A stretch of 64,000 bases of DNA from an uncultured Pelagibacteraceae bacterium (GTDB lineage: Bacteria > Pseudomonadota > Alphaproteobacteria > Pelagibacterales > Pelagibacteraceae). Below the pieces are notes generated by a model. It saw only the letters and a list, made by a program, of their open reading frames with translations, was not told where the DNA came from and searched no databases. This document shows, one piece after another, positions 5,434 to 23,110 of this stretch (position 1 is its first letter; each line of letters begins with the position of its first letter). The DNA lies in the NCBI GenBank assembly GCA_902592275.1, contig CACJDW010000001.1, positions 47,175 to 111,174 of the forward strand, read 5' to 3'. Position numbers and translations under genes: made by a program.

Positions 5434-6371
5434 AAATAGGTTTTATTGGTTTAGGAAATGTAGGCGGTAAACTAGCTGGAAGCTTAATAAGAAATAATTT
5501 TGATGTTACTGTTAGAGAAATAGATGAAAGTTTAACAAATGAATTTAAAATGCTAGGTGCTAAAGTTGCAAAGTCTCCTAAAGAATTGGCAGAACAAACT
5601 GATCTAATTATTACTTCGCTTCCTTCACCTGAAGTTTCTGCGGAAGTTATGGAAAGTGAAGATGGAATTCTAAATGGTTTATCAGAAAATAAAATTTGGT
5701 TAGAAATGAGCACAACAGATGAGGAAGAGGTTAAAAGACTTGGAAATAAAGTAATATCAAAAAAAGCTATCCCACTAGATGGACCTGTTAGTGGAGGATG
5801 TCATAGAGCGGCCACAGGTAATATTACAATATTTGTAGGTGGAGACAGAAAAGCTTTCGAAAAAATTTTACCAGCCTTAACTGTAATGGGTAGAAACATA
5901 TTACATACTGGTGAATTAGGTAGTGCATCAGTTCTTAAAGTCATAACAAATTATTTAGCATCAGTTCATTTGGTAGCATTAGGTGAGGCATGGACTGTTG
6001 CAAAAAAATCAAATTTAGATCTAGCTAAAACATTTAAGGGTATTGCAGTTTCATCAGGAAACTCATTTGTCCATGAAACAGAAAGCCAGGTTATTTTAAA
6101 TGGTTCTTATAATATTAATTTCACAATGGATCTTGTTCTAAAAGATACTGGGTTATTCGATAATCTAGCAAAGAAATTAAATGCTCCTTTAGAAATTTCT
6201 CCAAAAATAGTTGAGATATTTAAAGATGGACAAAAAAAATATGGTTCAAGAGCATGGTCATCAATGATTGTCAAAAGAATGGAAGATTTAAATAAAATTG
6301 ATTTTAGAGCTAAGGGTTTTCCAGAAGAGTTAACAGATAATGAGCCCGAGGAAAAAGGTTATGAAATATAA
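5430..6371 (+). CDS. NAD(P)-dependent oxidoreductase, 3-hydroxyisobutyrate dehydrogenase family
   Basis: IGFIGLGNVG Rossmann motif, DGPVSGG, catalytic K in LKVITNYL. Confidence 0.85.
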   Translation: MKIGFIGLGNVGGKLAGSLIRNNFDVTVREIDESLTNEFKMLGAKVAKSPKELAEQTDLIITSLPSPEVSAEVMESEDGILNGLSENKIWLEMSTTDEEEVKRLGNKVISKKAIPLDGPVSGGCHRAATGNITIFVGGDRKAFEKILPALTVMGRNILHTGELGSASVLKVITNYLASVHLVALGEAWTVAKKSNLDLAKTFKGIAVSSGNSFVHETESQVILNGSYNINFTMDLVLKDTGLFDNLAKKLNAPLEISPKIVEIFKDGQKKYGSRAWSSMIVKRMEDLNKIDFRAKGFPEELTDNEPEEKGYEI

Positions 6372-6392
6372 AAAGTATGATAAAATACTAAT

Positions 6393-7823
6393 ATGCTAGA
6401 TAAAAGAAAGTTCTACATAGATGGTAAATGGGTTGATCCTATTAAAAAAAATGACTTTGAGGTAATTAATCCATGTAATGAGGATGCTTGTGCAATTATC
6501 TCATTAGGTTCAAAAGAAGATACAGATAATGCTGTAAGAGCTGCAAAAAAAGCGTTTGATAGCTTTAAAGAAACAAGCAAAGAAGAAAGATTAGATTTAC
6601 TAGAAAGATTATTAGCTGTTTATAAAAAAAGATTTGGAGAAATGGCAGAAGCTATTTCACTAGAAATGGGAGCACCTATGGATTGGGCTACAGATGTACA
6701 AACTGCATCAGGACAAGCTCACTTAGAAGATTTTATAATTAGACTTAAAGAATTTAAGTTTGATGAGCATTTTGATGAAAAATCAAACAACCATATCTAC
6801 TATGAACCAATTGGTGTTTGTGGATTAATAACTCCATGGAACTGGCCAATTAATCAAATAGCTCTAAAAGTAGTTCCAGCGATTGCAACTGGATGCACAA
6901 TGATTTTAAAGCCATCTGAAATAGCACCAATATCTGCAATGTTATTTGCAGAAATGATTGATGAAGTTGGATTTCCAAAAGGTGTTTTCAACCTAGTGAA
7001 CGGAGATGGTGCTGGAGTTGGAACTCAAATTTCAAGTCATCCTGATATTGATATGGTTTCATTTACGGGTTCAACAAGAGCTGGAAGATTGATTTCAAAA
7101 AACGCTGCAGAAACAATAAAGAGAGTCTGTTTAGAACTTGGAGGAAAAGGTGGAAATATAGTTTTTGCAGATAGTTATAAAAATGCAGTTCGCGATGGCA
7201 TAAGAAACGTAATGAGTAACTCAGGTCAATCCTGTGATGCACCTACAAGAATGCTAGTTGAAAAATCAATTTATCAAAGAGCTGTAGATGATGCGGTTGA
7301 TGAGGCAAATAAAATAGGAGTCGACCAAGCATCTAAAAAAGGAGATCATATAGGACCTGTTATTTCAAAAACTCAGTACGATAAAATAATTGGTTTGATT
7401 GAAAGTGGAATTAAAGAGGGTGCAACATTAGCAGCAGGAGGCCCTGAATTGCCTAATGGGTTGAACAAAGGTTATTTTATTAAACCGACAATTTTCACAG
7501 ATGTTACAAATGAAATGAGAATAGCAAAAGAAGAAATATTTGGTCCAGTTTTATCAATTATTCCATTTGAAACTGAAGATGAGGCAGTTAATATTGTTAA
7601 TGATACTTCATATGGTTTAGGAAATTATTTACAAACTGAAGATAGAGAAAAGGCTCATAGAGTTGCAAAAAAACTAAGATCAGGCTGCGTTTATATAAAT
7701 GGAAATGCTGCAGACGCAGGAACTCCATTTGGAGGATATAGGCAATCAGGAAACGGAAGAGAGGGAGGTGTTTGGGGTCTTGAAGAATATCTAGAGGTAA
7801 AAACTGTAACTGGCTGGAATTAA
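6393..7823 (+). CDS. Aldehyde dehydrogenase
   Basis: ITPWNWP, FTGSTRAG, LELGGKG, GQSC catalytic Cys, EEIFGP, PFGGYRQSG. Confidence 0.92.
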   Translation: MLDKRKFYIDGKWVDPIKKNDFEVINPCNEDACAIISLGSKEDTDNAVRAAKKAFDSFKETSKEERLDLLERLLAVYKKRFGEMAEAISLEMGAPMDWATDVQTASGQAHLEDFIIRLKEFKFDEHFDEKSNNHIYYEPIGVCGLITPWNWPINQIALKVVPAIATGCTMILKPSEIAPISAMLFAEMIDEVGFPKGVFNLVNGDGAGVGTQISSHPDIDMVSFTGSTRAGRLISKNAAETIKRVCLELGGKGGNIVFADSYKNAVRDGIRNVMSNSGQSCDAPTRMLVEKSIYQRAVDDAVDEANKIGVDQASKKGDHIGPVISKTQYDKIIGLIESGIKEGATLAAGGPELPNGLNKGYFIKPTIFTDVTNEMRIAKEEIFGPVLSIIPFETEDEAVNIVNDTSYGLGNYLQTEDREKAHRVAKKLRSGCVYINGNAADAGTPFGGYRQSGNGREGGVWGLEEYLEVKTVTGWN

Positions 7824-7835
7824 TTTCATTAATTT

Positions 7836-8468
7836 ATGCACCTAATCCATCGTGGGATCATCAATAAAAATCACAAAGAAAACTTACTAAAATCTTTTCT
7901 ACAATCATTTAAAAAAGGATATGGAATTGAAACAGATATTCATGCAACAAAAGATGAAAAATTTATTTGTTTTCACGACTTTACTCTAAAGAGAATTTTT
8001 AAAGATAAATCTAGTATAAAAAATTTAAATTATTCAGATATTGAAAAAATAACTAAAAAAAAAATACCACTATTAAATGATATTCTTAAAGCATCAAAAA
8101 ATAAGTATTTTTTGTTTATTGAAATAAAACCATTTTTTTCGAAAAAAATCTTAAAAAAACTAGTAAGTGAAACTTCTGATTATTCTAAATGTGTATTTAT
8201 TTCTTTTAAACACAAAAATATTTATGACCTTTTAAAAATTAATAAAAAAATTAAAGTTGGACTTTCTTTTCATCCACCATCAAGTATTAAATCAATCATC
8301 AAAAAATCATTAAATAAAAATATAAATTGCTTAGTTTTAGATAAATCATATTTAGAAAATAAAAGTATAAAGAAGATTAATAAGGATAAGTATTTTTATA
8401 CAATCAAAACTAAATCTGAGTTTAAAAAATATAATAAAGAAAATAATCTTATTTTTGAAAATTTATAA
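7836..8468 (+). CDS. Glycerophosphodiester phosphodiesterase (GDPD) family protein
   Basis: IHRG, EN, IETD, HD and IEIK motifs of the GDPD domain. Confidence 0.8.
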   Translation: MHLIHRGIINKNHKENLLKSFLQSFKKGYGIETDIHATKDEKFICFHDFTLKRIFKDKSSIKNLNYSDIEKITKKKIPLLNDILKASKNKYFLFIEIKPFFSKKILKKLVSETSDYSKCVFISFKHKNIYDLLKINKKIKVGLSFHPPSSIKSIIKKSLNKNINCLVLDKSYLENKSIKKINKDKYFYTIKTKSEFKKYNKENNLIFENL

Positions 8469-9593
8469 TTATCTTTTTAGATAATTTAATCTGCCAACTA
8501 TTTCGTCTCGATCCATATAATAACCTTGCAGATGCCTATGACCAGAATTTGGATTAAATTCAGTTCTACCATGAAGAACTCTTCTATTGTTAAATGAAAA
8601 AATATCACCAGGCTCTAATCTGAAATTAATTTGATATTTTGGATCGTGAAGAAGATTTCCAAATCTATGATGAGCTTTGTAAGCTTTTTCCATAACTTCA
8701 GGGCTACAATCTAATACATCCATAGTTGCAACACTAAATCTTACATCATTAAAATCTCCATCTTTAGTTAAAGTTATTGCTGGAGCATGAAAATGTCTGT
8801 GCGCTTCTTGCGTATAATCCTTATCTTTAAACTTAAAAGGAACATTAACTAACGTATCAAATATTTCTTTTTCATTTTCTCTTAAATAATCGGCAACTTT
8901 AAACGCATCTATTGCTGAAGAATTTCCCCCTTCTGCAGAATTTATAAGACAATGAAGAAACTGATACCCTGGAGGATTTTCAAACCAAGGAAGATCCATG
9001 TGATTTCTCAATGCATGAGCTGTATAAGCAGAATTATTTGGTTTTGGAATATTAATTACTTCAAACGGAGTTTTAAAAAAAGTTTCTCGTGTATGACTTA
9101 TACGATTTAAAACTTTTAATGCGGAGTTTGTTTCAACAGGTGCATTTTTAACAATTGAAATGCCTGTATGATGTAAGAGCTCTAGCCATTTAATCAATCC
9201 TTCTTCAGAATTCATTATTTCATCATGATCAATTTGAATAGAAGCTAAATTGTTTTCTAATGAATTATCCCAAAGTGTGTATGGAGATAGATATTTTTTT
9301 TTATTATTAATTGTGTAGCAATTTTCTCTTAACCATTTAGGATCATAATGACTTGTGTGATCTCCCTCACTCCATTCGATTTCTAGTTTGCCATCTGAAC
9401 TCACTGAATAATTTTTAGGATTAATATTTTGGGAAACATTCAAAATATTAAACATTCTATGTCTTGAATCTTTATCATGTGCAGTTGGGCAATTATCTCT
9501 TAACCAAAGATAATTAAATTTGCTTTCTTCTCCATCGTTCCAAATAACTTTTAAATATGTAGAATTTTTCTCAAGCTTTGAAATTTCACTCAT
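8469..9593 (-). CDS. Gamma-butyrobetaine hydroxylase-like Fe(II)/2OG dioxygenase (TauD superfamily with N-terminal GBBH-like domain)
   Basis: WLRDNC N-terminal motif, HMD (HxD), QFLHC, NRRVLHGR, RHLQGYYMDRD. Confidence 0.8.
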   Translation of the reverse strand: MSEISKLEKNSTYLKVIWNDGEESKFNYLWLRDNCPTAHDKDSRHRMFNILNVSQNINPKNYSVSSDGKLEIEWSEGDHTSHYDPKWLRENCYTINNKKKYLSPYTLWDNSLENNLASIQIDHDEIMNSEEGLIKWLELLHHTGISIVKNAPVETNSALKVLNRISHTRETFFKTPFEVINIPKPNNSAYTAHALRNHMDLPWFENPPGYQFLHCLINSAEGGNSSAIDAFKVADYLRENEKEIFDTLVNVPFKFKDKDYTQEAHRHFHAPAITLTKDGDFNDVRFSVATMDVLDCSPEVMEKAYKAHHRFGNLLHDPKYQINFRLEPGDIFSFNNRRVLHGRTEFNPNSGHRHLQGYYMDRDEIVGRLNYLKR

Positions 9594-9721
9594 AATTAAT
9601 CTTTATATAAACGAGTAACCAAATCAACTCAATTAATAGTTGTATTACAAATTGACTTGTTTTTTTCCTTTAATCATTATTAAATCTCCATATTAAAACT
9701 TAACCTTAAGGAGATAATTTA

Positions 9722-10738
9722 ATGAAGTTTTTAAAAAGATTAACTATCTCAATTTTCCTTTTATCATCTTTAGTTGTTAGTACTGCTAATGCAGGTGACT
9801 GTAAGGCTAGATTGGGAGATTTCGACTGGAGTAGTGCGAACATCCATACTGCAATCACACAGTTTATTCTTGAAAAAGGATATGGTTGTGAGGTTTCAGT
9901 AACTAAAGGAAGTACTACACCTATCATGGCTGCACACTACGATAAACAATTAGATGTTATTACTGAAGTTTGGTACGACAATATTATTGCTAACTATGAA
10001 CCACATGAACAAGCTGGTACAATTCAAAATATTGGAGTGAACACACCAGACTCGCAACAAGCGTTTTATGTTGATAAGGCAACAGCTGATAAATACAACT
10101 TAAAATCTGTAGAGGATATGAAAGATCCAAAAATAGCGGCGCTATTTAAAGATCCAGAAGATCCATCTAAAGGTAGAATGACTAGCTGTATTTCTGGCTG
10201 GACTTGTTACACAGTTAATATGGTTAAACAAATAGAGTATGGTTTAGACAAATACTATACTAACTTTGATCCAGGTTCTGGTGGTGCATTGGATGCTGCT
10301 ATCGCTGGTGCTTTCGCTAAGAAAAAACCTATCTTTACTTACTACTGGGCACCAACAGGTTTAATGGGAAAAGTTGAACTTGTTAGACTAAAAGAACCTG
10401 CTTTTGATGCTGATTGCTGGAATAAAATGTCTGCAGTTGTAGAAGACATTAAAGCAAACGGTCCTGATGCTTATAAAAAAAGTTGTGCTTGTGAATATAG
10501 AGATATGGCTTTAACAAAGTCTGTTTTAACTGATTGGGCAAAAGCGCACCCAGCAGAAACTGAGTTTTTAAAGAAATACACTATTCCAACAGCTACTGTT
10601 AACAAAATGTTAGCGTTCTACGAAGATGAGTCGGATGGTGACATGGAATTAACTGCTAAGGAGTTTTTAAAAACAGAATCAATGTGGAAAAGCTGGGTTC
10701 CAGCTGATGTAGCTTCTAAAGTTACTGCTGCATTGTAA
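9722..10738 (+). CDS. proX: Glycine betaine/choline/carnitine-type ABC substrate-binding protein
   Basis: Signal peptide; DWSS, GYGC, EVW, CISGWTC, YYWAPT motifs of the OpuAC/ProX family. Confidence 0.8.
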   Translation: MKFLKRLTISIFLLSSLVVSTANAGDCKARLGDFDWSSANIHTAITQFILEKGYGCEVSVTKGSTTPIMAAHYDKQLDVITEVWYDNIIANYEPHEQAGTIQNIGVNTPDSQQAFYVDKATADKYNLKSVEDMKDPKIAALFKDPEDPSKGRMTSCISGWTCYTVNMVKQIEYGLDKYYTNFDPGSGGALDAAIAGAFAKKKPIFTYYWAPTGLMGKVELVRLKEPAFDADCWNKMSAVVEDIKANGPDAYKKSCACEYRDMALTKSVLTDWAKAHPAETEFLKKYTIPTATVNKMLAFYEDESDGDMELTAKEFLKTESMWKSWVPADVASKVTAAL

Positions 10739-10755
10739 TCTATAATTAAATTTTG

Positions 10756-10782
10756 AAAGAGCCCTTTTGCGAGGGCTCTTTT
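10756..10782 (+). terminator. Hairpin/terminator between the SBP and permease genes
   Basis: AAAGAGCCCT-loop-AGGGCTCTTT followed by a T-rich tail. Confidence 0.75.
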
Positions 10783-10807
10783 ATTATTAGGATTAAAAAT
10801 TCATTTA

Positions 10808-11833
10808 ATGGATATAAAAAGAAATAAAAAACTATTTTTTAATATAGGTCTTCTAGTCTTCTTTGTTTGGCTACTAATAATTAGTTATAGCTCTTCAAAA
10901 AGAAAACCTGATAACATTGGTGAATTACTAAACGATTTTTCTTGGCTACAAAAATGGCCCAAATGGTTAGACCTTCCATTAATGAAGTGGATAAATATTG
11001 GTTTTAAAAAATTAAATGAAACTTATGGTTTTATTTTTGAAGCAATAAATAATTTTTTACTAGCAATGCTGATGGCTTTAAAAAATTTTTTAATATTAGC
11101 TCCATGGCCAGCTGTAGTGTTAGGGGTTACAGTTATAGCTTATTTTGCAAGTGGAAGAAAAATAAGAACAACTGTATTTGTTGGTTTTTGCACTTTCTTT
11201 ATTGGCTTTTTACATCCAATATTTTGGCAAAAAGCTATAGAAACCACAGCCATAATGTTAATAAGTATTTTTCTTTGTTTGGTATTTGGAATGCCAGTGG
11301 GAATTTTAATGTCTAGAGCTGAAAGGATAAGAAACAAAATACTCCCAGTTCTTGACTTAATGCAAACTATTCCAGCATTTGTATATTTAATTCCTGGAAT
11401 AATGCTTTTTGGATTAGGTGCTGTTCCAGCAATTATTGCTACATTTATTTATGCAGTACCTCCTTTGGTCAGACTAACAGATCTAGGAATAAGACTTGTA
11501 GATAAAGAGGTAATTGAAGCAGCAGATGCTTTTGGTGCAAGTAAAAAACAAAAATTATGGGGTGTGCAAATGCCATTAGCGTTACCCAATATTATGCAAG
11601 GTATAAACCAATGTACAATGATGGCTTTATCTATGGTGGTTATTGCATCAATGATTGGAACAAGGGGTTTAGGTGACGAAGTTCTGCTAGGTTTACAGCA
11701 GCTAAATGTTGGTAGAGCTGCAGAAGCAGGAATTGCGATAGTGCTTTTAGCTATCGTGCTTGATAGAATAACTCAATCTTACGGAGAAACTTTACAAGAA
11801 AGACGAGCTCCAGAAAAAAAGAAAGGTAAATAA
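10808..11833 (+). CDS. proW: Glycine betaine/proline ABC permease
   Basis: LDLMQTIPAFVYLIP, EAADAFGAS (EAA loop), GINQCTMMALSMVV. Confidence 0.9.
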   Translation: MDIKRNKKLFFNIGLLVFFVWLLIISYSSSKRKPDNIGELLNDFSWLQKWPKWLDLPLMKWINIGFKKLNETYGFIFEAINNFLLAMLMALKNFLILAPWPAVVLGVTVIAYFASGRKIRTTVFVGFCTFFIGFLHPIFWQKAIETTAIMLISIFLCLVFGMPVGILMSRAERIRNKILPVLDLMQTIPAFVYLIPGIMLFGLGAVPAIIATFIYAVPPLVRLTDLGIRLVDKEVIEAADAFGASKKQKLWGVQMPLALPNIMQGINQCTMMALSMVVIASMIGTRGLGDEVLLGLQQLNVGRAAEAGIAIVLLAIVLDRITQSYGETLQERRAPEKKKGK

Positions 11834-12858
11834 TGTCTAAAATAGAGATTAAAAATGTTTACAAAATTTTTGGAAACAATCCTCAGTCTGTAATGCCGAT
11901 GGTAAAAGATGGTGCCAACAAAGAAGAGGTTTTAGAACAAACTGGACATACAGTTGGACTTGATAATGTTTCATTGAATATTGAGGAAGGCGAAACGTTT
12001 GTATGTATGGGTCTTTCAGGATCAGGAAAATCTACACTAATTAGACATCTTAACAGACTGATTGATCCAACTGATGGTGAAATTTTAGTTGAAGGAACAA
12101 ATGTAATGTCATTCAACAAAGAACAGCTTATTGATTTTAGAAGACACAAAATGAGCATGGTGTTTCAAAGATTTGGTTTATTTCCTCACAAAACTGTTTT
12201 GCAAAACGTTGGTTATGGTTTGGAAATGCAGGGCAAGCCCGAAGATGAAAGAGACAGAACTGCTATGGAAAAAATTGAAGCTGTTGGCTTAACTGGTTTT
12301 GAAAATCAATTTCCCAATCAATTATCAGGTGGTATGCAACAAAGAGTTGGTTTAGCAAGAGCACTTGCAACCGATAGCGACATCATGTTGATGGATGAAG
12401 CGTTTAGTGCTTTAGATCCTTTAATTAGAAGTGATATGCAAAAACAATTACTTGATCTTCAATCAGAATTGAAAAAAACCATCGTATTTATTACTCATGA
12501 TTTAGATGAGTCATTAAGACTTGGAGATCATATTGGAATATTAAATGCTGGTAAATTAGTTCAAGTTGGAACACCGGTTGATATCATAATGAACCCAGCA
12601 GATGATTATGTAAAAGCATTCGTTAAAGATGTAAATAGAGCAAAAGTAATAAAAGCTAAAGTAGTTATGAAAAAAACTGAAGAAGCAAATGAAATTGATA
12701 AATCTAATTTAATAAAAGTTAATGAAGATCAATTTATAGAAGAATTTTTACCTCAAATTGTTTGTTCAAATTCAAACTGTGAGGTTGTTGATAAAAGTGG
12801 AAATGTAAAAGGTTATATATCAAATAAAGAACTACAGACATCACTAACAAAATCTTAA
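11833..12858 (+). CDS. proV: Glycine betaine/proline ABC ATP-binding protein
   Basis: GLSGSGKS, LSGGMQQRVG, MDEAFSALDPLIR. Confidence 0.9.
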   Translation: MSKIEIKNVYKIFGNNPQSVMPMVKDGANKEEVLEQTGHTVGLDNVSLNIEEGETFVCMGLSGSGKSTLIRHLNRLIDPTDGEILVEGTNVMSFNKEQLIDFRRHKMSMVFQRFGLFPHKTVLQNVGYGLEMQGKPEDERDRTAMEKIEAVGLTGFENQFPNQLSGGMQQRVGLARALATDSDIMLMDEAFSALDPLIRSDMQKQLLDLQSELKKTIVFITHDLDESLRLGDHIGILNAGKLVQVGTPVDIIMNPADDYVKAFVKDVNRAKVIKAKVVMKKTEEANEIDKSNLIKVNEDQFIEEFLPQIVCSNSNCEVVDKSGNVKGYISNKELQTSLTKS

Positions 12859-12861
12859 TTA

Positions 12862-13650
12862 ATGGTTAACCAATCATTAAAGAATAAAAAAATAATAATT
12901 TCTGCAGGAGCATCTGGGATAGGTTTAGCTACAGCTAAAGTATGTCTTGCGCGTGGAGCATATGTTTATCTTTGTGATATTGACACTAAATCTTTAAACA
13001 AACTTAATAAACATCCTTTAAAAAATAAAAGATTGTTCTCATATGCGTGTGATGCCTCAGATGAAAATCAAGTTTCAGATTTATTTAAGAAAATAAACAA
13101 GAAAACAAAAAAAATCGATGCTTTAATAAATAATGTTGGAATTGCTGGACCAACCGGATCACTAGAAAAACTTAAATCTGAAGATTGGGAAAGAACCATA
13201 CAAGTAGATGTTAATAGTCATTTTTATTTTACTAAAAAAGCTATACCTTTAATTAAAAAGTCTAAAAATGGATCAATAATAAATATTTCATCAACAGCTG
13301 GAATATTAGGTTTTCCTTTAAGATCCCCTTATGCGGCAAGCAAATGGGCAATCATTGGAGTTACCAAAACATTGGCAATGGAACTAGGTAAATTCAATAT
13401 AAGAGTTAATGCAGTATGTCCTGGTTCAATAAAAGGCGAAAGAATGAAAAGAGTAATAAGAGATAAAGCAAAGTTTACAAAAGTTTCTTCAAAAAAAGTT
13501 GAAAAAGAATTTATTTCAATGAGTTCTATGAAAAAATGGATCCTAGAGGAAGATATAGGAAAAATGTGTGCTTTTTTAATATCCGATGACTCAAGTAAAG
13601 TTTCAGGGCAGGTAATTTCTGTAGATGGACATACAGAAAGAAACGACTAA
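12862..13650 (+). CDS. Short-chain dehydrogenase/reductase
   Basis: SAGASGIG, NNVG, YAASK (YxxxK). Confidence 0.88.
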   Translation: MVNQSLKNKKIIISAGASGIGLATAKVCLARGAYVYLCDIDTKSLNKLNKHPLKNKRLFSYACDASDENQVSDLFKKINKKTKKIDALINNVGIAGPTGSLEKLKSEDWERTIQVDVNSHFYFTKKAIPLIKKSKNGSIINISSTAGILGFPLRSPYAASKWAIIGVTKTLAMELGKFNIRVNAVCPGSIKGERMKRVIRDKAKFTKVSSKKVEKEFISMSSMKKWILEEDIGKMCAFLISDDSSKVSGQVISVDGHTERND

Positions 13651-14045
13651 TTCGAAAACCTTTTATACTTTGGGAGTTTATCAGTAATTTTATAAAAATC
13701 TGATTTAGTACCAACAAATATATTTCTCATCGTCTTAAGACCTGTTTTTCCATTAAACATACCCGCAGCTATTGATACATTGTCTGTGTTTTTAAATTTA
13801 AAAAAAATACTAGCCCCACATTTATTGCAAAATCCTCTTTTTGCACTACTGGATGATTTAAACCATTTGAGAGTTTTTTTATTTATAAATTTAATATCTT
13901 TATCTTTAACATTAGAATAAGCACCATAAATACCATGGGTTTTTCTACATTGAATACAATGACAATTTGAAACATTTCTATGTTCACCACTAGTTTTAAA
14001 CTTTACTCCTTTACATAAACAACTAGCTGTTAAAGTTTTTTTCAT
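13647..14045 (-). CDS. GFA/CENP-V family Zn protein
   Basis: CLC, CHCIQC and FCNKCG cysteine pattern. Confidence 0.82.
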   Translation of the reverse strand: MKKTLTASCLCKGVKFKTSGEHRNVSNCHCIQCRKTHGIYGAYSNVKDKDIKFINKKTLKWFKSSSSAKRGFCNKCGASIFFKFKNTDNVSIAAGMFNGKTGLKTMRNIFVGTKSDFYKITDKLPKYKRFSN

Positions 14046-14989
14046 TATCTTCTAATTTTATTTTCGTATTTTTTTCTTAATTTTTGAAGATCAACTAAAT
14101 ACTGATCTCTTATATTTGATATCATTGCAACCGATTTACCTTTGGCTTGTTTTGCTGTTCCAGAAATAAGTCTTGATGATAATTTATTTGATAATTTTGG
14201 TGCTTTTAACTTTGTCCAAGGTAACTTTAAAGCAGGTCCAAATTGCTCTAACATATGTTTCATTCCTGCTTTTCCACCTGCAAGGTGAAAAGTTAAAAAT
14301 GTACCCATTAACGACCATCTTAATCCTGGACCATCTTCAATTGCCCTATCTAATTCCTCCGTAGTTGCATACCCCTCATTAATTATATGTAAACCTTCTC
14401 TCCATAATGCTTCTTGCAATCTATCTGATAAATAACCAGGTAATTCATTTTTTACCATAATTGGATTCATAGAAATCGATTCATAAAATTTTTTAGCTAA
14501 ATTTAAATTTTTTCTTAAAGTTCTCTTACCTGGAACAATTTCTACAGCAGGCAATAAATAAACAGGATTAAACGGGTGTCCAATTATACCTCGCTCTGGA
14601 TTTTTGCATTTTGAATAAATTCTTGTTGGGAGCAAACCTGAAGAGCTTGAAGAAATTATAGAATTTGGTTTTGCATGCTTTCCAATTTTATTCATCAGTT
14701 TAGTTTTTAAAGAATAGTTTTCAGTTGCACATTCCTGAATAAAGTCTGCTTCTTTTAACGCCTGTTCTATTGAAGTAAAAAAATAAAAATTTTTAAGATT
14801 TAGTTTTTTTTTGTTAAAAAGTTTTTTTACAAATGGCCATGTTCTTTTTATTTCGGATATTAAATTTTTTTTTAACTTGATATCCTTATCAAATGCATAA
14901 ACAATTTTGTTATGAGCTAAACAACGTATGATCCACCCTGCTCCAATTACACCTGTTCCAATTACAGCAACTTTTTTAATATTTTGCAT
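14045..14989 (-). CDS. lcdH: L-carnitine dehydrogenase (3-hydroxyacyl-CoA dehydrogenase family)
   Basis: GTGVIGAGW, HPFNPVYLLP, DRLQEALWRE, GPGLRW, QFGPALKLPWTKL; next to BKACE and thioesterase genes. Confidence 0.8.
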   Translation of the reverse strand: MQNIKKVAVIGTGVIGAGWIIRCLAHNKIVYAFDKDIKLKKNLISEIKRTWPFVKKLFNKKKLNLKNFYFFTSIEQALKEADFIQECATENYSLKTKLMNKIGKHAKPNSIISSSSSGLLPTRIYSKCKNPERGIIGHPFNPVYLLPAVEIVPGKRTLRKNLNLAKKFYESISMNPIMVKNELPGYLSDRLQEALWREGLHIINEGYATTEELDRAIEDGPGLRWSLMGTFLTFHLAGGKAGMKHMLEQFGPALKLPWTKLKAPKLSNKLSSRLISGTAKQAKGKSVAMISNIRDQYLVDLQKLRKKYENKIRR

Positions 14990-15876
14990 TACTTGTGTTT
15001 AACAAGTTTTAACTTCTCTCTTGTTTCTGCAGGTGTCATTGTTGTTGCACCTAGATCTTCAACAATTCTAAGTGCTTTTTCAACTAGCTGAGCATTTGTT
15101 GCTAGTTTGCCTTTAGATAAATACAAATTATCTTCTAAACCCACTCTTGGATTACCACCCATAATTACTGTTTGTGCTACGAATGGCATCTCATTTTTCG
15201 AAATTGCAAAGCCTGACCACACACCTTCTTTTGGCATAATATCTTTCATTGCTTGCATTGCTAATGGAGTAGCTGGCGCTCCCCATGGAATTCCTAAACA
15301 CATTTGAAACATTGGAGGATCATCTAACAATCCTTCTTTATACAGTTGTGCTCCAAACCACATATTTCCTAAATCAAATGCTTCTATTTCTGGTTTTACT
15401 TTAATTTCTTTTAATCGTTTTGCAGCTTTTCTTAAATCGTTTGGAGTATTAACCGTTATAACTGAACTATCACCAAAATTTAAAGTTCCACAATCTAGTG
15501 TACAAATTTCAGGTAAAAATTGTTCAGCATTAGCAATTCTTTCCATAACATTTGCCATATCAGTCATTGGTCCAAACTCTAACGGGTCTTTGCCTTGACC
15601 AATGTCTAAATCCCCACCCATTCCAGTTGTTAAATTCAAAATAACATCCGTATCACTTGAACGAACTCTATCTACAACTTCTTTATATAATTCTAACCTC
15701 CTGCTTGGTCTTCCATCTTCTTCTCTTACGTGAATATGTGCTATTGCAGCTCCTGCCTTCGCAGCTTCAATTGCCGCTGTTGCAATTTGTTCTGGTGTTT
15801 TTGGTAAATCTGGATGCTTACTTGCTGTGTCTCCTGACCCAGTTACAGCACACGATATGAATACCTTGTTGTTCAT
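14989..15876 (-). CDS. Beta-keto acid cleavage enzyme (BKACE/Kce family), probable 3-dehydrocarnitine cleavage enzyme (CdhC-like)
   Basis: CAVTG, AHIHVR Zn motif, TLDCGTLNFG, RVGLEDN. Confidence 0.82.
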   Translation of the reverse strand: MNNKVFISCAVTGSGDTASKHPDLPKTPEQIATAAIEAAKAGAAIAHIHVREEDGRPSRRLELYKEVVDRVRSSDTDVILNLTTGMGGDLDIGQGKDPLEFGPMTDMANVMERIANAEQFLPEICTLDCGTLNFGDSSVITVNTPNDLRKAAKRLKEIKVKPEIEAFDLGNMWFGAQLYKEGLLDDPPMFQMCLGIPWGAPATPLAMQAMKDIMPKEGVWSGFAISKNEMPFVAQTVIMGGNPRVGLEDNLYLSKGKLATNAQLVEKALRIVEDLGATTMTPAETREKLKLVKHK

Positions 15877-15923
15877 TTTAAGTAAGATTTATACTATTAT
15901 AAAAAGGACGAGGGAATAAAAAA

Positions 15924-16391
15924 ATGTCATTTCACATAACAGATCAAACAATCAAAAAAGAATGGACCGATTACAATAATCACATGAACATGGCTTACTA
16001 TGTCCTGATTTTTGATCAGACTTGGGAGATAATTCTTGAAAAATTTAAGATGGGTGAAAAATCTGCAAAGGATACTCAACGAAGTACTATGGTTGTTGAA
16101 ACCCGAACTACTTATGATGGAGAAGTTAAAGAAGGAGATCAGGTTGAAATTGTTTTAAGCTTTTTTGATCATGATAAAAAGAGACTACATTTCAAAATGG
16201 AAATGATTGAAAAATCATCAAAAAAATTATCTGCAACTATCGAAATGTTAGCTCTCTATATTGATCTTAGTAAAAGAAAAGTTACAGAATTTGAGGAAGA
16301 AAAAATTAAAATTATGGACGACTTTATAAATGAAAATAAAAATGAATTTAATTCTGATAATTTAACAATTATAGGAAAACTTAAAAAATGA
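15924..16391 (+). CDS. Hot-dog thioesterase, probable betainyl-CoA thioesterase (CdhB-like)
   Basis: WTDYNNHMNMAYY and DKKRLH motifs; divergent from the carnitine genes. Confidence 0.72.
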   Translation: MSFHITDQTIKKEWTDYNNHMNMAYYVLIFDQTWEIILEKFKMGEKSAKDTQRSTMVVETRTTYDGEVKEGDQVEIVLSFFDHDKKRLHFKMEMIEKSSKKLSATIEMLALYIDLSKRKVTEFEEEKIKIMDDFINENKNEFNSDNLTIIGKLKK

Positions 16392-17218
16392 TTGATGTAA
16401 AATTATTATCAGGGGCATTAGGTGCAGAAATAAATGGAATTAATTTAACTGATGTTTCAGATGAAAATTTTAAAAAAATAAATGATCTATTGTTAGAACA
16501 CAAAGTTATTTTTTTTAGAGATCAACCTTTAACCACAGAACAGCATATTGCATTAGCTGCAAAGTTTGGCCCATTAGAAACACATGCATATGTTAAAGGC
16601 CGAAGTGAATTTCCTGAAATTGTAAGAATAATTAAAAAACCTGATGAAAAAACACAATGGGGCGAAGGTTGGCACTCAGATGTTAGTTACAATAAAAAGC
16701 CAACAAAGGCAGTTGTTTTAAAATCAATTAAAATTCCTCCAGTTGGAGGGGATACTGTTTTTTCAAATATGGAACTTGCATGGAAAACATTAGATGATGA
16801 GATGAAAAATAAGATTAAAGATAAAAAAGCTGTTCATTCATCAAGGGGTGGAGGGTTTTTCCTAGATAAATATAAAGCGATGGAGAGCAATGGAAATATG
16901 GATGAATACTCAAATACTCATCCAATTTTAAGAACTCATCCCGAAACAGGTAAAAAAATTCTTTTTGTTAACTGGACCTATACAAAAGAAATAGTTGGCA
17001 TGGATAAAAAAGAAAGTGATGAGATATTAAATTATTTATTTGAACATCAAGCTAGATTAGATCTTACTTGTAGATTTAAATGGACAGAAAATGCAATTGC
17101 GATCTGGGATAATAGAAGTGTTCAACACTATGCGATCGCTGATTTTTATCCAAATAAAGGACTTGGTTTTGAAAGAATAATGGATCGTATTGCTATTGAA
17201 GGGGATCATCCACAATAA
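16388..17218 (+). CDS. TauD/TfdA family Fe(II)/2OG dioxygenase
   Basis: LGAEI, VIFFRDQ, WHSD (HxD), GGDT, HPETG, WDNRSVQH. Confidence 0.88.
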   Translation: MIDVKLLSGALGAEINGINLTDVSDENFKKINDLLLEHKVIFFRDQPLTTEQHIALAAKFGPLETHAYVKGRSEFPEIVRIIKKPDEKTQWGEGWHSDVSYNKKPTKAVVLKSIKIPPVGGDTVFSNMELAWKTLDDEMKNKIKDKKAVHSSRGGGFFLDKYKAMESNGNMDEYSNTHPILRTHPETGKKILFVNWTYTKEIVGMDKKESDEILNYLFEHQARLDLTCRFKWTENAIAIWDNRSVQHYAIADFYPNKGLGFERIMDRIAIEGDHPQ

Positions 17219-17221
17219 TAA

Positions 17222-17758
17222 ATGAAAATAATTTATAAAATCATTTCAAATTTTATAAATAACAAATCTTTGTACATTGGTGAAAAAGTGACTATGTCGG
17301 AACATATGATTCAATCCGCCATGCTTGCTGAGAAAGCTAAGTGTAACGATGATTTAATTTGTGCATGTTTACTACATGACTATGGTCATTTTCTTTTAGA
17401 AGATCCTGATGAATTAGTTAAAAATAAATTAGACGGAGAACATGAAAATATTGGATATCAGTATCTTAAAAAATTTTTTGGACAAAAAATTGTTGAGCCA
17501 ATTAAATATCATGTTTTAGCTAAACGTTATTTAGCTAGAGACAAAAAATATTTTGATTATTTATCAAATGCGTCAAAAATTAGCCTTAAGTTACAAGGAG
17601 GAGTTCTAAATGCTAAAGAGAGTAAAGAATTTGAAAATAAATCTTACTTTAAGCCATCAATTCTTCTTCGAAAATTTGATGAGGCTGCAAAAAGAACTGA
17701 CATTAAAATGAAATCTATTCATGACTATGAAAAGTTGTTAAGTTCCAAACTTATATGA
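17222..17758 (+). CDS. HD-domain diiron oxygenase, PhnZ/TmpB-like
   Basis: YIGE..EH, LLHDYGH, EHE, HVLAKRYL, S..SL.LQGG, R.FD..AK, i.e. the PhnZ-type metal/substrate residue pattern. Confidence 0.8.
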   Translation: MKIIYKIISNFINNKSLYIGEKVTMSEHMIQSAMLAEKAKCNDDLICACLLHDYGHFLLEDPDELVKNKLDGEHENIGYQYLKKFFGQKIVEPIKYHVLAKRYLARDKKYFDYLSNASKISLKLQGGVLNAKESKEFENKSYFKPSILLRKFDEAAKRTDIKMKSIHDYEKLLSSKLI

Positions 17759-19338
17759 ATTTCGATTATTTAATAATTGGTGCTGGAAGTGCAGGCTGTG
17801 TACTTGCAAATCGATTAACAGAAAACAATCAAAACAATGTAGCAATATTTGAAGCTGGGAAACCCAGTGATATTTGGAAAGTTAACATGCCACTTGCGAT
17901 TTTATATACAATGCATGATCCAAAATATAACTACAAATATTATTCAGAACCAGAACCTCATTTACATAATAGAAGATTATTTTGTCCAAGAGGAAAAATG
18001 ATTGGTGGATGTTCTGCTCATAATGGAATGGTATTTGTAAGAGGAAACCCAAATGATTATCAAAGGTGGGCATCTTTTGGATTGGATGATTGGTCGTATG
18101 AAAAAGTCCTTCCTTATTTTAAAAAAATTGAAACCTGGTCTGAGGGAGAAAATGAATATCGTGGTGGTACAGGAATATTGCCAGTAAACCAATCTAAAAA
18201 TAAAAATCCTTTATTCAAAGCGTTTGTCGATTCAGCTGGCGAGGCTGGTTATAAAATAAACAACGACATGAATGGTAAAGAACAAGAAGGTTTTGGAATG
18301 TACGATGTTACTATTCATAATGGTGAAAGAGCAAGTGTATCTAAATATTATTTAAATCCTGCCAAAAAAAGAAAAAACCTAAAAGTATTCACAGAAGCTT
18401 TTGTTGAGAGAATTATATTTGATGGAAAAAAAGCAATTGGAATTGAAGTAAAAATCAAAAATAAAATCGAAAAGATTTATGCTAATAAAGAAGTGATTTT
18501 AAGTGGAGGTGCAATTAATTCACCACAATTACTAATGCTTTCTGGAATTGGTCCAAGCCAACACTTAAAAGACAAGGGAATTGATGTTGTTCATAACTTA
18601 GAGGGTGTTGGAAAAAACTTACAAGATCATCTAGAAACCTACGTTCAGCAGGAATGTAAAACCAAAGATACTTTATATTCATACGTTAATAAACTTAATA
18701 TGATAAGGATTGGTATTCAGTGGTTTTTAAATAGAAGTGGTCCCTGCTCTACTTCTTTCTTAGAAGCTGGAGGTTTTTGTAAATCATCTCCAGAAAGAGA
18801 ATATCCAAATATTCAATTTCATTTTTTTCCTGCTTTCGTAATTGATCATGGATTAGTTGATCCAGACAGGCATGGTTACCAATTACATGCGAGTCCAAAC
18901 CATCCAAAAAGTAGAGGTCATATAACTTTAAACAGTTCAGACCCTTATGATTATCCAAAAATTCAATTTAATTATCTAGAACATGAAGATGATTTAAAGC
19001 AAACCATAGAATGTATTCATGTAGCTAGAAAAATTTTGGGGCAAGACTCTCTGAAGCCTTTTGCGGGTAAAGAAATTGGACCAGGAGAACATGCTCAAAC
19101 AAATGAGGTATTTGAAGAATATATTAGATCTAAAGCTGAGACTGCTTATCACCCATCATGCACTTTAAAAATGGGTGTGGATAATATGGCTGTTGTAGAT
19201 CAAAAACTAAAAGTTCATGGTGTTGAAAATCTAAGAATAGTTGATGCGTCTGTAATGCCTGAAATTACAAGTGGAAACCTAAATGCCCCAACATTAATGA
19301 TTGCTGAAAGGGCCTCAGATTTTATTCTTAATTCATGA
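17755..19338 (+). CDS. betA: Choline dehydrogenase (GMC oxidoreductase)
   Basis: GAGSAG FAD motif, PRGKMIGG, GAINSPQLLMLSGIG, NLQDH, AYHPSCT, GNLNAPT. Confidence 0.82.
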   Translation: MNFDYLIIGAGSAGCVLANRLTENNQNNVAIFEAGKPSDIWKVNMPLAILYTMHDPKYNYKYYSEPEPHLHNRRLFCPRGKMIGGCSAHNGMVFVRGNPNDYQRWASFGLDDWSYEKVLPYFKKIETWSEGENEYRGGTGILPVNQSKNKNPLFKAFVDSAGEAGYKINNDMNGKEQEGFGMYDVTIHNGERASVSKYYLNPAKKRKNLKVFTEAFVERIIFDGKKAIGIEVKIKNKIEKIYANKEVILSGGAINSPQLLMLSGIGPSQHLKDKGIDVVHNLEGVGKNLQDHLETYVQQECKTKDTLYSYVNKLNMIRIGIQWFLNRSGPCSTSFLEAGGFCKSSPEREYPNIQFHFFPAFVIDHGLVDPDRHGYQLHASPNHPKSRGHITLNSSDPYDYPKIQFNYLEHEDDLKQTIECIHVARKILGQDSLKPFAGKEIGPGEHAQTNEVFEEYIRSKAETAYHPSCTLKMGVDNMAVVDQKLKVHGVENLRIVDASVMPEITSGNLNAPTLMIAERASDFILNS

Positions 19339-20285
19339 CACAATCCCAAAATAACCCTAGGGGTATTGTCTTTATTTTATTAGGAATGGCAACTTTTTCC
19401 ATTCAAGATGCTTTAATTAAATTTATCTATGAAGATGTAGCTTTATATGAATTATATTTTGGGAGAACACTTGTAGCTTGCATCTTGTTAATAATTTATC
19501 TCAAAATTACTAATCAAAAAATAAATTTAAAAAGTCATTATCCTTTTTTAACAATTTTAAGAGTAATATGTTTCTTTTTTGGGTTCAGTTTTTTTTATAT
19601 CTCTCTTACTTACATGTCTCTGGCAATGGCGAATGCACTTTTCTTTTCCAGTCCTTTTTTCATATCCATATTGGCAACTATTTTTTTAAAAGAGAAAGTT
19701 GGTATAAGAAGATGGATTGCAATTTTTGCTGGTTTTTTTGGAGTGTATATTGTTTTAAATCCAGATTTTAATGATTTTGATTATATGAAATTAGCACCTG
19801 TTGCCTGTGCTTTATGCTACGCAATTTCAATGACAATTACTAAAGTAACCTCCGATAAAGATAATGTTTATACTCAAATGTTACATTTATATTTTGGTGC
19901 ACTATTAATTAGTATTTTGTTTTTTATTTTCACAGGGAAAGGTCAATTCAATAATTTTAGCGATGAAACTTTTCAGTTTATTTTTAGAGAATGGTTTACA
20001 AATCCTTCATATTCATGGCCTTTTATAATTGCCATGGGCTGCATTGGTGCATTTGCATTTTATTTTGTTTTTAATGCCTACAGTATAGCTTCCCCATCTG
20101 TAGTCTCGCTATATGAGTATTCATTAATAATATGGTCAATTATCACTGGATATTTAATATTTGATAACATTCCAACTGTTAGAACTTTTATAGGTGTTTC
20201 GATAATTATAGGTGCTGGTGTGTATATTTATTTTAGGGAAAAGGTCAAAGATCAACTGATTGTGACAGACACTCCAAATAGATGA
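19335..20285 (+). CDS. DMT/EamA family transporter
   Basis: Multi-TM; FSSPFF..LKEKVGIRRW signature. Confidence 0.85.
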   Translation: MTQSQNNPRGIVFILLGMATFSIQDALIKFIYEDVALYELYFGRTLVACILLIIYLKITNQKINLKSHYPFLTILRVICFFFGFSFFYISLTYMSLAMANALFFSSPFFISILATIFLKEKVGIRRWIAIFAGFFGVYIVLNPDFNDFDYMKLAPVACALCYAISMTITKVTSDKDNVYTQMLHLYFGALLISILFFIFTGKGQFNNFSDETFQFIFREWFTNPSYSWPFIIAMGCIGAFAFYFVFNAYSIASPSVVSLYEYSLIIWSIITGYLIFDNIPTVRTFIGVSIIIGAGVYIYFREKVKDQLIVTDTPNR

Positions 20286-21247
20286 AAAACTATATCCCAA
20301 CAATCAATATTTCAGCATTAATCAAAAATAATTTTAATACAAAAAAAGCCAATCAAACAATTAAACAAATAGAAAAAGCTTGTGTCAATGTTGGTTTTTT
20401 CCAGATAACAGGTCACGGTATCAATTTAAAAGAAATAAAAAAAACTTGTGATGTTGGCAATAAATTTTTTAATTCTTCTAAAATTAATAAGCAAAAATTA
20501 TCCCCTAAGAAATGGAATAAAAAAAATAAAAATCTTTATAGAGGATACTTTCCAAATGACGTGAATGGTAAAGAAGGTTTAGATATTGGTGATTTAAAAG
20601 TTACAAAAAATTATTCAGCAAAAATTAAAAACCAATATATTGAACACTTAGATCTAAGCAAAAGTATTGATAAATCATCGATAAAAATTTTAGAAAAATA
20701 TTTTGATAATTTATTTTCATTAAGTGAAACTTTATTCAAAAGTATAATTAAACTTTATAAAAAAAATCCTGATATTTCTAAAATGGCTTTCTCAAGATTA
20801 AAAACATTAAGCACTTTAAGATTTAATTATTATCCAAACCAGACAAAGCCAGTTGAAATATCAAAACAAGATGGGGTTGCTCTTGGATGTGAAACTCATG
20901 TTGATAGTGGAGTGTTTACTGTACTTTATCAAGATAGAAAAGGTGGGCTACAGGTGCAAAATAGAAAAACAAAAAAATGGTATGATGTTCCATTTAATAA
21001 AAAGGCTTTGGTTGTAAATACTGGAAGAGCATTAGAATTTCTTAGTAAAGGTAAATTTAAAGCAACAAATCATAGAGTACTATGGAATAAAACTAAGAGA
21101 CTCTCTGTTCCTTTTTTCTTTGAACCTTCCTATAATTTCAAAATGAACCAATCATTTTTAAATGGAAGTAAATGCAAAAATAATGGTCTAATTTATGAGA
21201 AATTTCTTAACAAATCCTTAAAGAAATTTATTGAATATCAACGTTAG
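20282..21247 (+). CDS. Isopenicillin-N-synthase-like Fe(II)/2OG oxygenase
   Basis: IPTINI, GFFQITGHG, YRGY, LRFNYYP, HVD (HxD), HRV, RLSVPFF (RxS). Confidence 0.85.
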   Translation: MKNYIPTINISALIKNNFNTKKANQTIKQIEKACVNVGFFQITGHGINLKEIKKTCDVGNKFFNSSKINKQKLSPKKWNKKNKNLYRGYFPNDVNGKEGLDIGDLKVTKNYSAKIKNQYIEHLDLSKSIDKSSIKILEKYFDNLFSLSETLFKSIIKLYKKNPDISKMAFSRLKTLSTLRFNYYPNQTKPVEISKQDGVALGCETHVDSGVFTVLYQDRKGGLQVQNRKTKKWYDVPFNKKALVVNTGRALEFLSKGKFKATNHRVLWNKTKRLSVPFFFEPSYNFKMNQSFLNGSKCKNNGLIYEKFLNKSLKKFIEYQR

Positions 21248-21280
21248 TAATAATAAGGTTTGAATATAAAGCGATACATA

Positions 21281-21349
21281 ACTCGTCGTTAAATTCAAAA
21301 ATTTACGAAAGTGGGATCGGTCGTCTTTAAATTAATTTTTAAAGGAGGC
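21281..21349 (+). promoter_or_regulatory. Candidate structured 5' leader with SD-sequestering hairpin
   Basis: Two hairpins foldable by eye: 21281-21312 and 21320-21349; the second pairs GTCGTCTTTAAA with TTTAAAGGAGGC, covering the GGAGG SD. Confidence 0.35.
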
Positions 21350-21352
21350 TTT

Positions 21353-22519: not shown

Positions 22520-22522
22520 TAA

Positions 22523-23107: not shown

Positions 23108-23110
23108 TTG

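Follow-up and report, generated by a model that had tools for sequence, protein, structure and literature searches.

A modular SAR11 genomic island that probably converts several quaternary amines to glycine betaine and carries a PhnZ/TmpB-type oxygenase gene

Introduction

The 11.5-kb gene cluster at positions 7836-19338 of a 64,000-nucleotide stretch of DNA from an uncultured Pelagibacteraceae bacterium (assembly GCA_902592275.1, contig CACJDW010000001.1, positions 47,175 to 111,174; here called the window) is part of a modular SAR11 island, known from Arctic isolates, whose enzymes are predicted to turn several quaternary amines into glycine betaine. To the published unit it adds a gene, here called HD, for a PhnZ/TmpB-type oxygenase that would act on hydroxylated trimethylaminoethylphosphonate, and the hydroxylase supplying that substrate is probably not the island gene resembling butyrobetaine hydroxylase (BBOX). 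We assign this reading as a whole a probability of about 0.65. Gene content, gene order, residue conservation, selection and co-occurrence were observed directly, and from them we infer every substrate and product named below.

SAR11 cells need outside sources of glycine and of methyl donors, and they are reported to use betaine as a glycine substitute. A 2015 study judged choline metabolism to be absent from the SAR11 clade on the genomes then available. According to Sadler et al. (2025, mBio, PMC12421898), an Arctic SAR11 glycine-betaine genomic island has a proposed role in betaine uptake and production; its Table S4 lists 17 genes, comprising HADH, aldehyde dehydrogenase (ALDH), VOC, GDPD, BBOX, proXWV, short-chain dehydrogenase (SDR), carnitine dehydrogenase (CDH), beta-keto acid-cleaving enzyme (BKACE), class II aldolase, thioesterase, SMR, another TauD-family gene, betA and DMT. 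Fourteen of these 17 listed genes occur in the window in the same order, and the gene labelled 'BBOX(2)' is the window tauD, gene starts being matched by eye. A first-pass annotation of the window had proposed a funnel of parallel routes leading to betaine around one ProXWV importer, and knew of no account of the combination as a single unit. That claim to novelty falls, since the unit itself is already known from PMC12421898; it holds only for the HD gene, which the 17-gene list lacks, and for the substrate guesses, including that for TauD. Carnitine genes in offshore SAR11 genera receive one sentence in PMC12636525.

Results

Layout and distribution of the island

The source genome is 1.15 Mb and 84% complete, and its close relatives are Pelagibacteraceae. 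Profile scans agree with the families assigned at first pass: GDPD, BBOX-like, proXWV, CDH, BKACE, thioesterase, TauD, HD and betA are all intact open reading frames between 7836 and 19338, in conserved order and with the BBOX-like gene divergent from proXWV. The first-pass list had omitted an SDR and a GFA gene in the same interval. The cluster reaches past this interval in both directions, with a HIBADH-like and an ALDH gene upstream and EamA and 2-oxoglutarate (2OG) oxygenase genes downstream, and is laid out in five strand blocks: HIBADH-ALDH-GDPD (+), BBOX-like (-), proX-proW-proV-SDR (+), BKACE-CDH-GFA (-) and thioesterase-tauD-HD-betA-EamA-oxygenase (+). Intergenic gaps in the last block range from -4 to +3 bp, the tauD-HD gap being 3 bp. 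The five blocks and two divergent junctions, of 128 bp (BBOX-like/proX) and 47 bp (BKACE/thioesterase), mean that the island is not one operon. Open reading frame and family calls revealed no regulator within it, and its GC content does not depart from that of the rest of the window.

We searched one sample of 301 family genomes, the source genome included and many of them incomplete, for BBOX, BKACE, TauD, HD and TmpA. The island BBOX was found in 74 genomes, BKACE in 51 and true TmpA in 8; TauD gave 109 matches, of which 41 were counted as orthologs (at least 66% identity, some partial). HD occurred in 35 genomes, 32 with an ortholog (at least 54%) and three with only a 40-41% protein. Orthologs of HD, tauD, BKACE and BBOX coincide in 27 of the 301, and HD and BKACE turned up in three genera out of 19. 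Nesting is near-complete: BKACE is present in 40 of the 41 tauD genomes and 30 of the 32 HD genomes. Among 59 genomes chosen for carrying island genes, CDH was found in 49 and betA in 50. The island is a patchy, modular trait rather than a polar one.

The synteny survey proposed at first pass bore out the linkage. Of 79 loci fetched with TauD (up to 20 kb each, many shorter), six distant ones (37-41% identity) were dropped; among the 73 kept, HD lies directly behind tauD in 66 and does not in five, two being unscoreable, and all eleven genes are present in 17. Among the best 80 of 519 confirmed metagenomic HD matches, the upstream neighbour is tauD in 77, EamA in two and a contig edge in one, and betA lies downstream in 79. 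Chance does not account for the clustering. Between close loci, eight of the nine genes measured have a median dN/dS of 0.03-0.11 (0.038 for HD), and selection is weakest on GDPD (0.19). BKACE is the most conserved gene, with a mean identity of 94% over 55 loci. One contig labelled Burkholderiaceae (L071; G, C and L numbers are our handles for genomes, contigs and loci, G000 being the source genome) carries a thioesterase gene 96% identical to that of the window and half of a tauD that is 91% identical, which a binning error probably explains.

Carnitine, choline and glycerophosphocholine

The genes for carnitine breakdown are all present: a CDH-like gene (CdhA; 14045-14989, -), a CdhC-like BKACE gene (14989-15876, -; PF05853, 313 bits) and a CdhB-like thioesterase gene (15924-16391, +; PF13279). 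The best model for CDH is L-carnitine dehydrogenase NF005471, though the score is below cut-off (353 of 414 bits), and the thioesterase matches positions 346-478 of NF005716, where fused carnitine dehydrogenases have their C-terminal domain. A carnitine route through 3-dehydrocarnitine and betainyl-CoA is described in PMC5806209 and PMC12482172, and the formation of betainyl-CoA by CDH and BKACE, with release by a thioesterase domain, is established in Pseudomonas and Sinorhizobium. In the island, CDH would very probably oxidise carnitine, BKACE cut the product to betainyl-CoA, and the thioesterase release betaine.

Choline would be oxidised, with equally high confidence, by BetA (17755-19338, +), the aldehyde being finished by ALDH or by BetA itself. 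BetA passes the choline dehydrogenase subfamily model NF002550 (752 bits, cut-off 605), falls below the equivalog TIGR01810 (687 against 732) and has choline dehydrogenase 9LQ0 as its best PDB match. The ALDH gene, which with the HIBADH-like dehydrogenase gene (together 5430-7823, +) corresponds to the first two genes of the published island, encodes a candidate betaine-aldehyde dehydrogenase (TIGR01804, 426 bits, cut-off 669). Support is good for both the carnitine and the choline branch. A CitE-like C-C lyase gene lies between BKACE and the thioesterase gene in L085, L113 and L118; that it encodes a carnitinyl-CoA lyase yielding betaine aldehyde is a guess.

The GDPD-family phosphodiesterase (7836-8468, +; PF03009, 66.7 bits), which closes the HIBADH-ALDH block, is short and variable, and its catalytic residues H5, R6, E15, E32, D34, H47, E96 and K98 are invariant in 25 of 25 orthologs. 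Release of choline from glycerophosphocholine by this enzyme is plausible, at about even odds. A Ugp-like ABC system occupies the GDPD slot beside the BBOX-like gene in 13 of 39 loci (including L007, L015 and L121); in L104 a full-length GDPD and a 2H phosphodiesterase accompany it. Betaine formed by these routes would pass to the products of BHMT-like and DMGDH-like genes, which lie on contig C15 of the same genome.

The HD gene

HD (17222-17758, +) encodes a PhnZ/TmpB-type HD diiron oxygenase whose best PDB match is TmpB (6NPA, E 5.7e-32), followed by PhnZ, and thirteen metal and substrate positions are invariant in 66 of 66 orthologs. The substrate-binding residues of PhnZ, which we take to be H62, K108, S126, T129, Q133 and R158, correspond to H56, K101, S118, S121, Q125 and R150 of HD, invariant throughout, with Ser for Thr as in TmpB. 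Equally invariant are Y18, E21, H28, H52, D53, H74, H97 and D153, which make up the diiron motif H..HD..H..H..D and the YxxE loop described for HD oxygenases in PMC8177086. The products of TmpB are glycine betaine and phosphate, and HD is likely to cleave the C-P bond of a 1-hydroxy-phosphonate in the same way. Against the TmpB model NF049941 HD scores 153 bits (cut-off 300); SAR11 HD proteins encoded next to tmpA likewise fall below, at 154-156.

All eight TmpA genomes carry an HD ortholog, and in four of them (G024, G048, G092 and G099) it stands head to head with true tmpA, whose product scores 532-564 bits (cut-off 400) and has all three phosphonate contacts (see below). A 24-protein tree nests the tauD-adjacent HDs, as a derived clade (100/100), within those adjacent to tmpA; a 49-row tree was less resolved. 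We interpret HD as a TmpB-type gene that has come to lie ahead of betA by a move. A relaxation of selection on HD following the loss of tauD was considered, the G201 branch being long (0.32), and is unsupported because G201 and G251 differ by dN 0.005 and dS 0.078. No HD was confirmed in viral contigs. A separate HD clade (40-41% identity) occurs in L096-L098 (G126, G267 and G291); in L096 it lies near phnX, phosphonate ABC and arsenic-related genes.

The BBOX-like gene

The gene at 8469-9593 (-) encodes an Fe/2OG oxygenase of the BBOX/TmpA family. Its product was tested against both enzymes because its top PDB match is TmpA (188 bits), ahead of human BBOX (161); it falls below both cut-offs, with 314 bits for TIGR02409 (cut-off 415) and 280 for the TmpA model (cut-off 400). 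In PMC9296572 the phosphonate contacts of TmpA are N187, N287 and R288, and the anion site of BBOX is N191 and N293. The window protein keeps the iron triad (H198, D200, H341), the aromatic cage (F173, F177, Y190, Y359) and N187, equivalent to N191, and has L201, S287, V288 and A289 at the anion site, so that the second anion-binding Asn (N293) is lost. Almost all of 42 orthologs have S, I/V and A at the sites of human N292/N293 and TmpA N287/R288. A 21-protein tree places the protein on the HxDL side, apart from TmpA (99/97). The reading as TmpA was dropped because of its residues (N287 and R288 of TmpA lost), its model score and its place in the tree. Its nearest relatives in three other Alphaproteobacteria (L144, L145 and L147) adjoin carnitine genes. 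It is a candidate butyrobetaine hydroxylase, and that it feeds butyrobetaine into the carnitine route has, on its sequence, a little less than an even chance.

Candidate hydroxylases for HD

The phosphorus-linked branch of the proposed funnel stands on one side only: HD keeps the PhnZ/TmpB residues, but the island has no TmpA-type hydroxylase, a step that the first-pass annotation did not raise, and the BBOX-like protein lacks the equivalents of N287 and R288. TmpA was found in none of the 86 genomes searched in the window's genus, 13 of which keep HD, nor in the source genome, where the best matches reach 33% and 27%. Among ten annotated plasmid HD genes, five have a hydroxylase gene directly upstream (three TmpA-type, two PhyH-type) and five have none adjacent. 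In PMC10574752, four versions of the oxidative C-P pathway are given, none with TauD.

The source genome encodes a second BBOX-family protein (G000:C4:78577-79680; L080:8578-9681, +) that falls on the TmpA side of the tree and has HxDN and an Arg at the position of TmpA R288. Paralogs of this type occur in none of the eight TmpA genomes, were assigned to 20 of 24 TmpA-less HD genomes by score band rather than by direct search, and adjoin the same eamA slot in two controls without TmpA. This paralog ranks first as the candidate hydroxylase, tentatively and with odds well short of even; the adjacent TauD, whose gene is present in 27 of the 32 HD genomes, would come second and is rather unlikely; import of an already hydroxylated substrate, with no hydroxylase, is less likely again, and the island BBOX-like protein is a very doubtful last. 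Six PhyH-family genes lie elsewhere in the genome. A literature search, which most subscription papers lay outside, gave no case of a TauD-family gene paired with PhnZ/TmpB and no record of TmpA/TmpB from SAR11; the neighbourhood analysis in the TmpA/TmpB primary paper may already cover the pairing with TauD.

TauD

The gene at 16388-17218 (+) encodes an Fe/2OG oxygenase of the TauD/AtsK/RdpA family (NF007104, 231 bits, cut-off 313) and belongs to a SAR11-restricted clade: no full-length relative outside the clade exceeds 47% identity among the best 150 representatives, and none in plasmids exceeds 40%. Residues H66, H96, D98, H247, R263 and R267 are invariant wherever covered, and we take H96, D98 and H247 to be the iron triad, R263 the 2OG-binding Arg, and H66 and R267 the sulfonate site. 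The taurine amine contacts of the E. coli enzyme, presumably Tyr73, Asn95 and Ser158, are replaced by V69, G92 and G/A155. An aromatic 'cage' (Y68, W91, W196) was rejected as weak evidence for a trimethylammonium ligand; roughly one in four unrelated full-length representatives has aromatic residues at two of its positions, and a few have them at all three. A reading of the pocket was likewise dropped: the AlphaFold model, built from 23 sequences, has a mean pLDDT of 64 with active-site segments below 50, and a Foldseek search with it confirmed the family and nothing further, so that we make no claim about the pocket. The ESM Atlas returned family names only.

The gene context favours a TauD product on the betaine route, because tauD abuts betA where HD is absent and, in genus g4, lies directly behind BHMT-like and DMGDH-like genes (L024, L035, L087 and L089). 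No gene of the sulfatase family, and so no BetC, was found in the 84%-complete genome. That TauD cleaves choline-O-sulfate or trimethyltaurine oxidatively would fit: hydroxylation of the carbon next to the sulfonate or sulfate ester of such a cationic substrate would yield betaine aldehyde for BetA, a proposal that we hold tentatively. A literature search for a dioxygenase acting on either compound gave only unrelated items. We infer the sulfur-linked role, which has a rival in guanidino substrates: directly behind betA, 44 of 64 scoreable loci have a ureohydrolase gene (33) or an amidinotransferase-like gene (11). Examples of this slot are L002:12951-13937 and L015:13003-14112; the amidinotransferase-like ortholog of the source genome, at G000:C2:156277-157377, lies beside a creatinase/EutD-like gene.

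The importer

The importer genes encode a ProX-like, OpuAC-family binding protein (9722-10738, +; PF04069; best PDB matches 7YLE and E. coli ProX 1R9L), a ProW-type permease (10808-11833, +; family profiles) and the ProV ATPase (11833-12858, +; TIGR01186 above cut-off). An aromatic box is kept in the binding protein, with W36 and W84 in 44 of 45 orthologs (one not covered) and W160 and W209 in all 45, which makes a quaternary amine or sulfonium compound its likely ligand. The proposal of a single ProXWV importer did not survive the survey: the binding protein is present in 32 of the 59 island genomes, others having a different one or a lone proV, and the Ugp-like system adds a further transporter. 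The binding protein is swappable, and uptake is likely to be shared among several such proteins. Because proV is often kept alone in relatives, ProV may be shared between transporters. It stands without proX or proW at the site in L104-L107, L111, L112, L115, L116 and L119-L121, and G000:C20 (L081) has a second binding protein and permease with no adjoining ATPase. A potD-like gene flanks the window island. Between proX and proW a G+C-rich hairpin is followed by T-rich sequence (10757-10783), which the terminator scan did not list; such hairpins usually stabilise the binding-protein message.

Remaining genes and flanks

The SDR gene (12862-13650, +; family profiles) is labelled 'ADH' in the published island, and the GFA-family gene (13647-14045, -; PF04828) is variable among relatives. 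The EamA/DMT transporter gene (19335-20285, +) overlaps betA by 4 bp and closes the published island. The right flank (20282-25370, +) is conserved and encodes a 2OG oxygenase, a luciferase-like monooxygenase, an AA_synth protein, an alpha/beta hydrolase and an ALDH; the last four genes presumably resemble trigonelline (Tgn) catabolic genes. On the left (2588-4503, -) lie genes for an EutD/DoeA-like hydrolase and an EutA-like racemase, each below its NCBIfam cut-off. A promoter scan gave 73 sites against 92 expected by chance, and an Rfam scan of 1-30000 gave no match. Of 30 bins, metatranscriptome contigs cover 30, 29 and 26 in the three runs used; there was no silent control, and such contigs show neither co-transcription nor level.

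Discussion

For carnitine and choline, a funnel onto glycine betaine is a reasonable idea; for sulfur it is tentative, and for phosphorus it is incomplete. In its favour are the carnitine genes, betA, the TmpB-like HD and the BHMT/DMGDH-like genes, but the phosphorus branch lacks its hydroxylase within the island and the contribution of the BBOX-like gene is doubtful. Several observations weigh against our overall reading. CDH, BBOX, TauD, HD and ALDH all score below their NCBIfam cut-offs. Kin are not independent, so the co-occurrence counts overstate their support. In the 24-protein tree the SAR11 HD clade has a long stem and fails to join three TmpB-like proteins from plasmids. Of the 74 BBOX carriers 24 show no BKACE, which reverses the nesting expected of an upstream feeder. 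TauD and HD are separable: 14 of the 41 TauD genomes show no HD, and 5 of the 32 HD genomes show no TauD. The C4 paralog has Asp at the position of TmpA N187, scores 348 bits against a cut-off of 400 and is common without HD; in G101, whose genome is a single contig and 99% complete, HD and tauD are present while TmpA and a C4-type paralog are both missing. A ureohydrolase or amidinotransferase-like gene within 3.5 kb behind betA in 49 of 64 loci speaks for guanidino substrates too. In SAR11 strain HTCC1062 a ProX-annotated protein has no high-affinity ligand and the broad osmolyte binder is the potD-annotated SAR11_1336, so that there the ProX annotation does not predict a high-affinity ligand.

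Two of the oxygenases invite other assignments. The BBOX-like enzyme might hydroxylate another N-methylated compound, whose product a class II aldolase would split and ALDH oxidise in a separate 'C-linked' pathway. The carriers without BKACE and the altered second anion site point this way, as do minimal islands (L105, L107, L119 and L120) that hold BBOX and class II aldolase genes converging on ALDH, with no CDH, BKACE, betA or binding protein in the 20 kb fetched. Yet the window island has no aldolase, N187, the cage and the iron ligands are kept, the protein sits on the HxDL side of the tree with its nearer outside relatives in carnitine clusters, and carnitine could serve as an osmolyte where CDH is missing. 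This alternative is possible at somewhat below even odds. The earlier claim that the BBOX-like enzyme makes carnitine accordingly keeps its conserved catalytic and cage residues in its favour and is weakened by the sub-threshold scores, the lost Asn and the BKACE-less carriers. TauD, for its part, might hydroxylate C1 of trimethylaminoethylphosphonate, an analogue of its sulfonate substrate, and so replace TmpA in a new TauD/PhnZ-type C-P cleavage pair. Its gene lies 3 bp upstream of HD, the position held by a hydroxylase gene in half of the annotated plasmid examples; the link recurs across genome and metagenome loci; TmpA went undetected in a genus where 13 genomes keep HD; HD is under purifying selection; and no candidate of the family other than TauD and the island BBOX was found in G101. 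However, G085, G154, G112 and G144 have tauD-HD-betA together with true TmpA, 16-19 kb away in two; in G201, G251 and two metagenome loci tauD is absent and HD still adjoins betA; tauD without HD often abuts betA; and the anion site has one Arg and one His with no evident extra basic residue. We regard TauD as an unlikely partner for HD. Less likely still, TauD of surface-ocean Pelagibacter may have replaced TmpA and open both sulfur-linked and phosphorus-linked betaine analogues, the sulfonate or sulfate product going as betaine aldehyde to BetA and the phosphonate product through HD to betaine and phosphate; if so, it would be a further version of oxidative C-P cleavage, in about a tenth of the sampled Pelagibacteraceae genomes.

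At the level of the island, the substrates of tauD-HD-betA might be guanidino compounds or others without a trimethylammonium group: taurocyamine would be desulfonated by TauD, guanidinoacetate formed by the GMC oxidase or ALDH, and glycine set free by a ureohydrolase or amidinotransferase, with betaine bypassed. Apart from the guanidino genes behind betA, the invariant E93 of TauD, with Y68 and W91 replacing the taurine amine contacts, is consistent with this. On the other side, the window has neither gene behind betA, its amidinotransferase-like ortholog being on contig C2; betA passes the choline dehydrogenase subfamily cut-off; tauD follows BHMT-like and DMGDH-like genes in genus g4; and the two guanidino genes alternate in one variable slot and may be independent passengers. 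We consider this improbable, and to the same degree the view that the region is a recombination slot beside a core osmolyte transporter that collects unrelated catabolic cassettes with no common end product. Gene content does vary widely between fixed flanks, the five strand blocks have no island regulator, and thioesterase-tauD-HD-betA lies at another site in nine loci. But BKACE, tauD and HD are nearly nested, and the swapped-in cassettes are betaine-related too (the Ugp-like transporter with full-length GDPD, TmpA, BHMT and DMGDH). A modular island whose products converge on betaine remains the reading that we prefer.

Should HD act like TmpB, some of the most abundant cells in the ocean could obtain both phosphate and betaine from a methylated phosphonate; estimates of how common this route is at sea disagree widely. 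The missing HD hydroxylase is a small question with three named candidate proteins: TauD, the C4 paralog and the island BBOX-like protein.

Among known systems the closest is the Arctic SAR11 island, which shares the order HADH-ALDH-GDPD-BBOX-proXWV-SDR-CDH-BKACE-thioesterase-TauD-betA-DMT. It adjoins a core osmolyte ABC system; near the window island lie genes for a potD-like binding protein and an ATPase (210-2542), a possible counterpart. Of the Table S4 genes, VOC, class II aldolase and SMR are missing from the window island, which has GFA and HD instead; HD is absent from the 17-gene list, up to three further genes of Fig. 4B lying outside the comparison. The paper gives no substrate for its TauD, and 'phosphonate' does not occur in the main text. 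It reads the island as a polar adaptation, whereas the close relatives found here include a Hawaiian-series isolate and many single-cell genomes, the window island being a version from warm oceans. The caiX-cdhCAB-hocS operon of P. aeruginosa, with CbcWV, likewise sets a CDH/BKACE/thioesterase triad next to a quaternary-amine binding protein, and its core transporter, common to several binding proteins, is a precedent for the lone proV; in the window the triad is split over two divergent blocks, there is no CdhR-type regulator or HocS, and further oxygenases are present. With TmpA/TmpB of Leisingera caerulea and with PhnY*/PhnZ, HD shares the diiron motif, the YxxE loop and the phosphonate-binding positions, but no TmpA or PhyH-family gene adjoins it, and a TauD-family gene stands in that position. 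The window TauD, at about 40% identity or less to the solved members of its family, shares with E. coli TauD, AtsK alkylsulfatase and RdpA the fold, the iron triad, the 2OG-binding Arg and the His/Arg anion site, and differs in lacking the taurine amine contacts (V69, G92), with W91 and W196 nearby.

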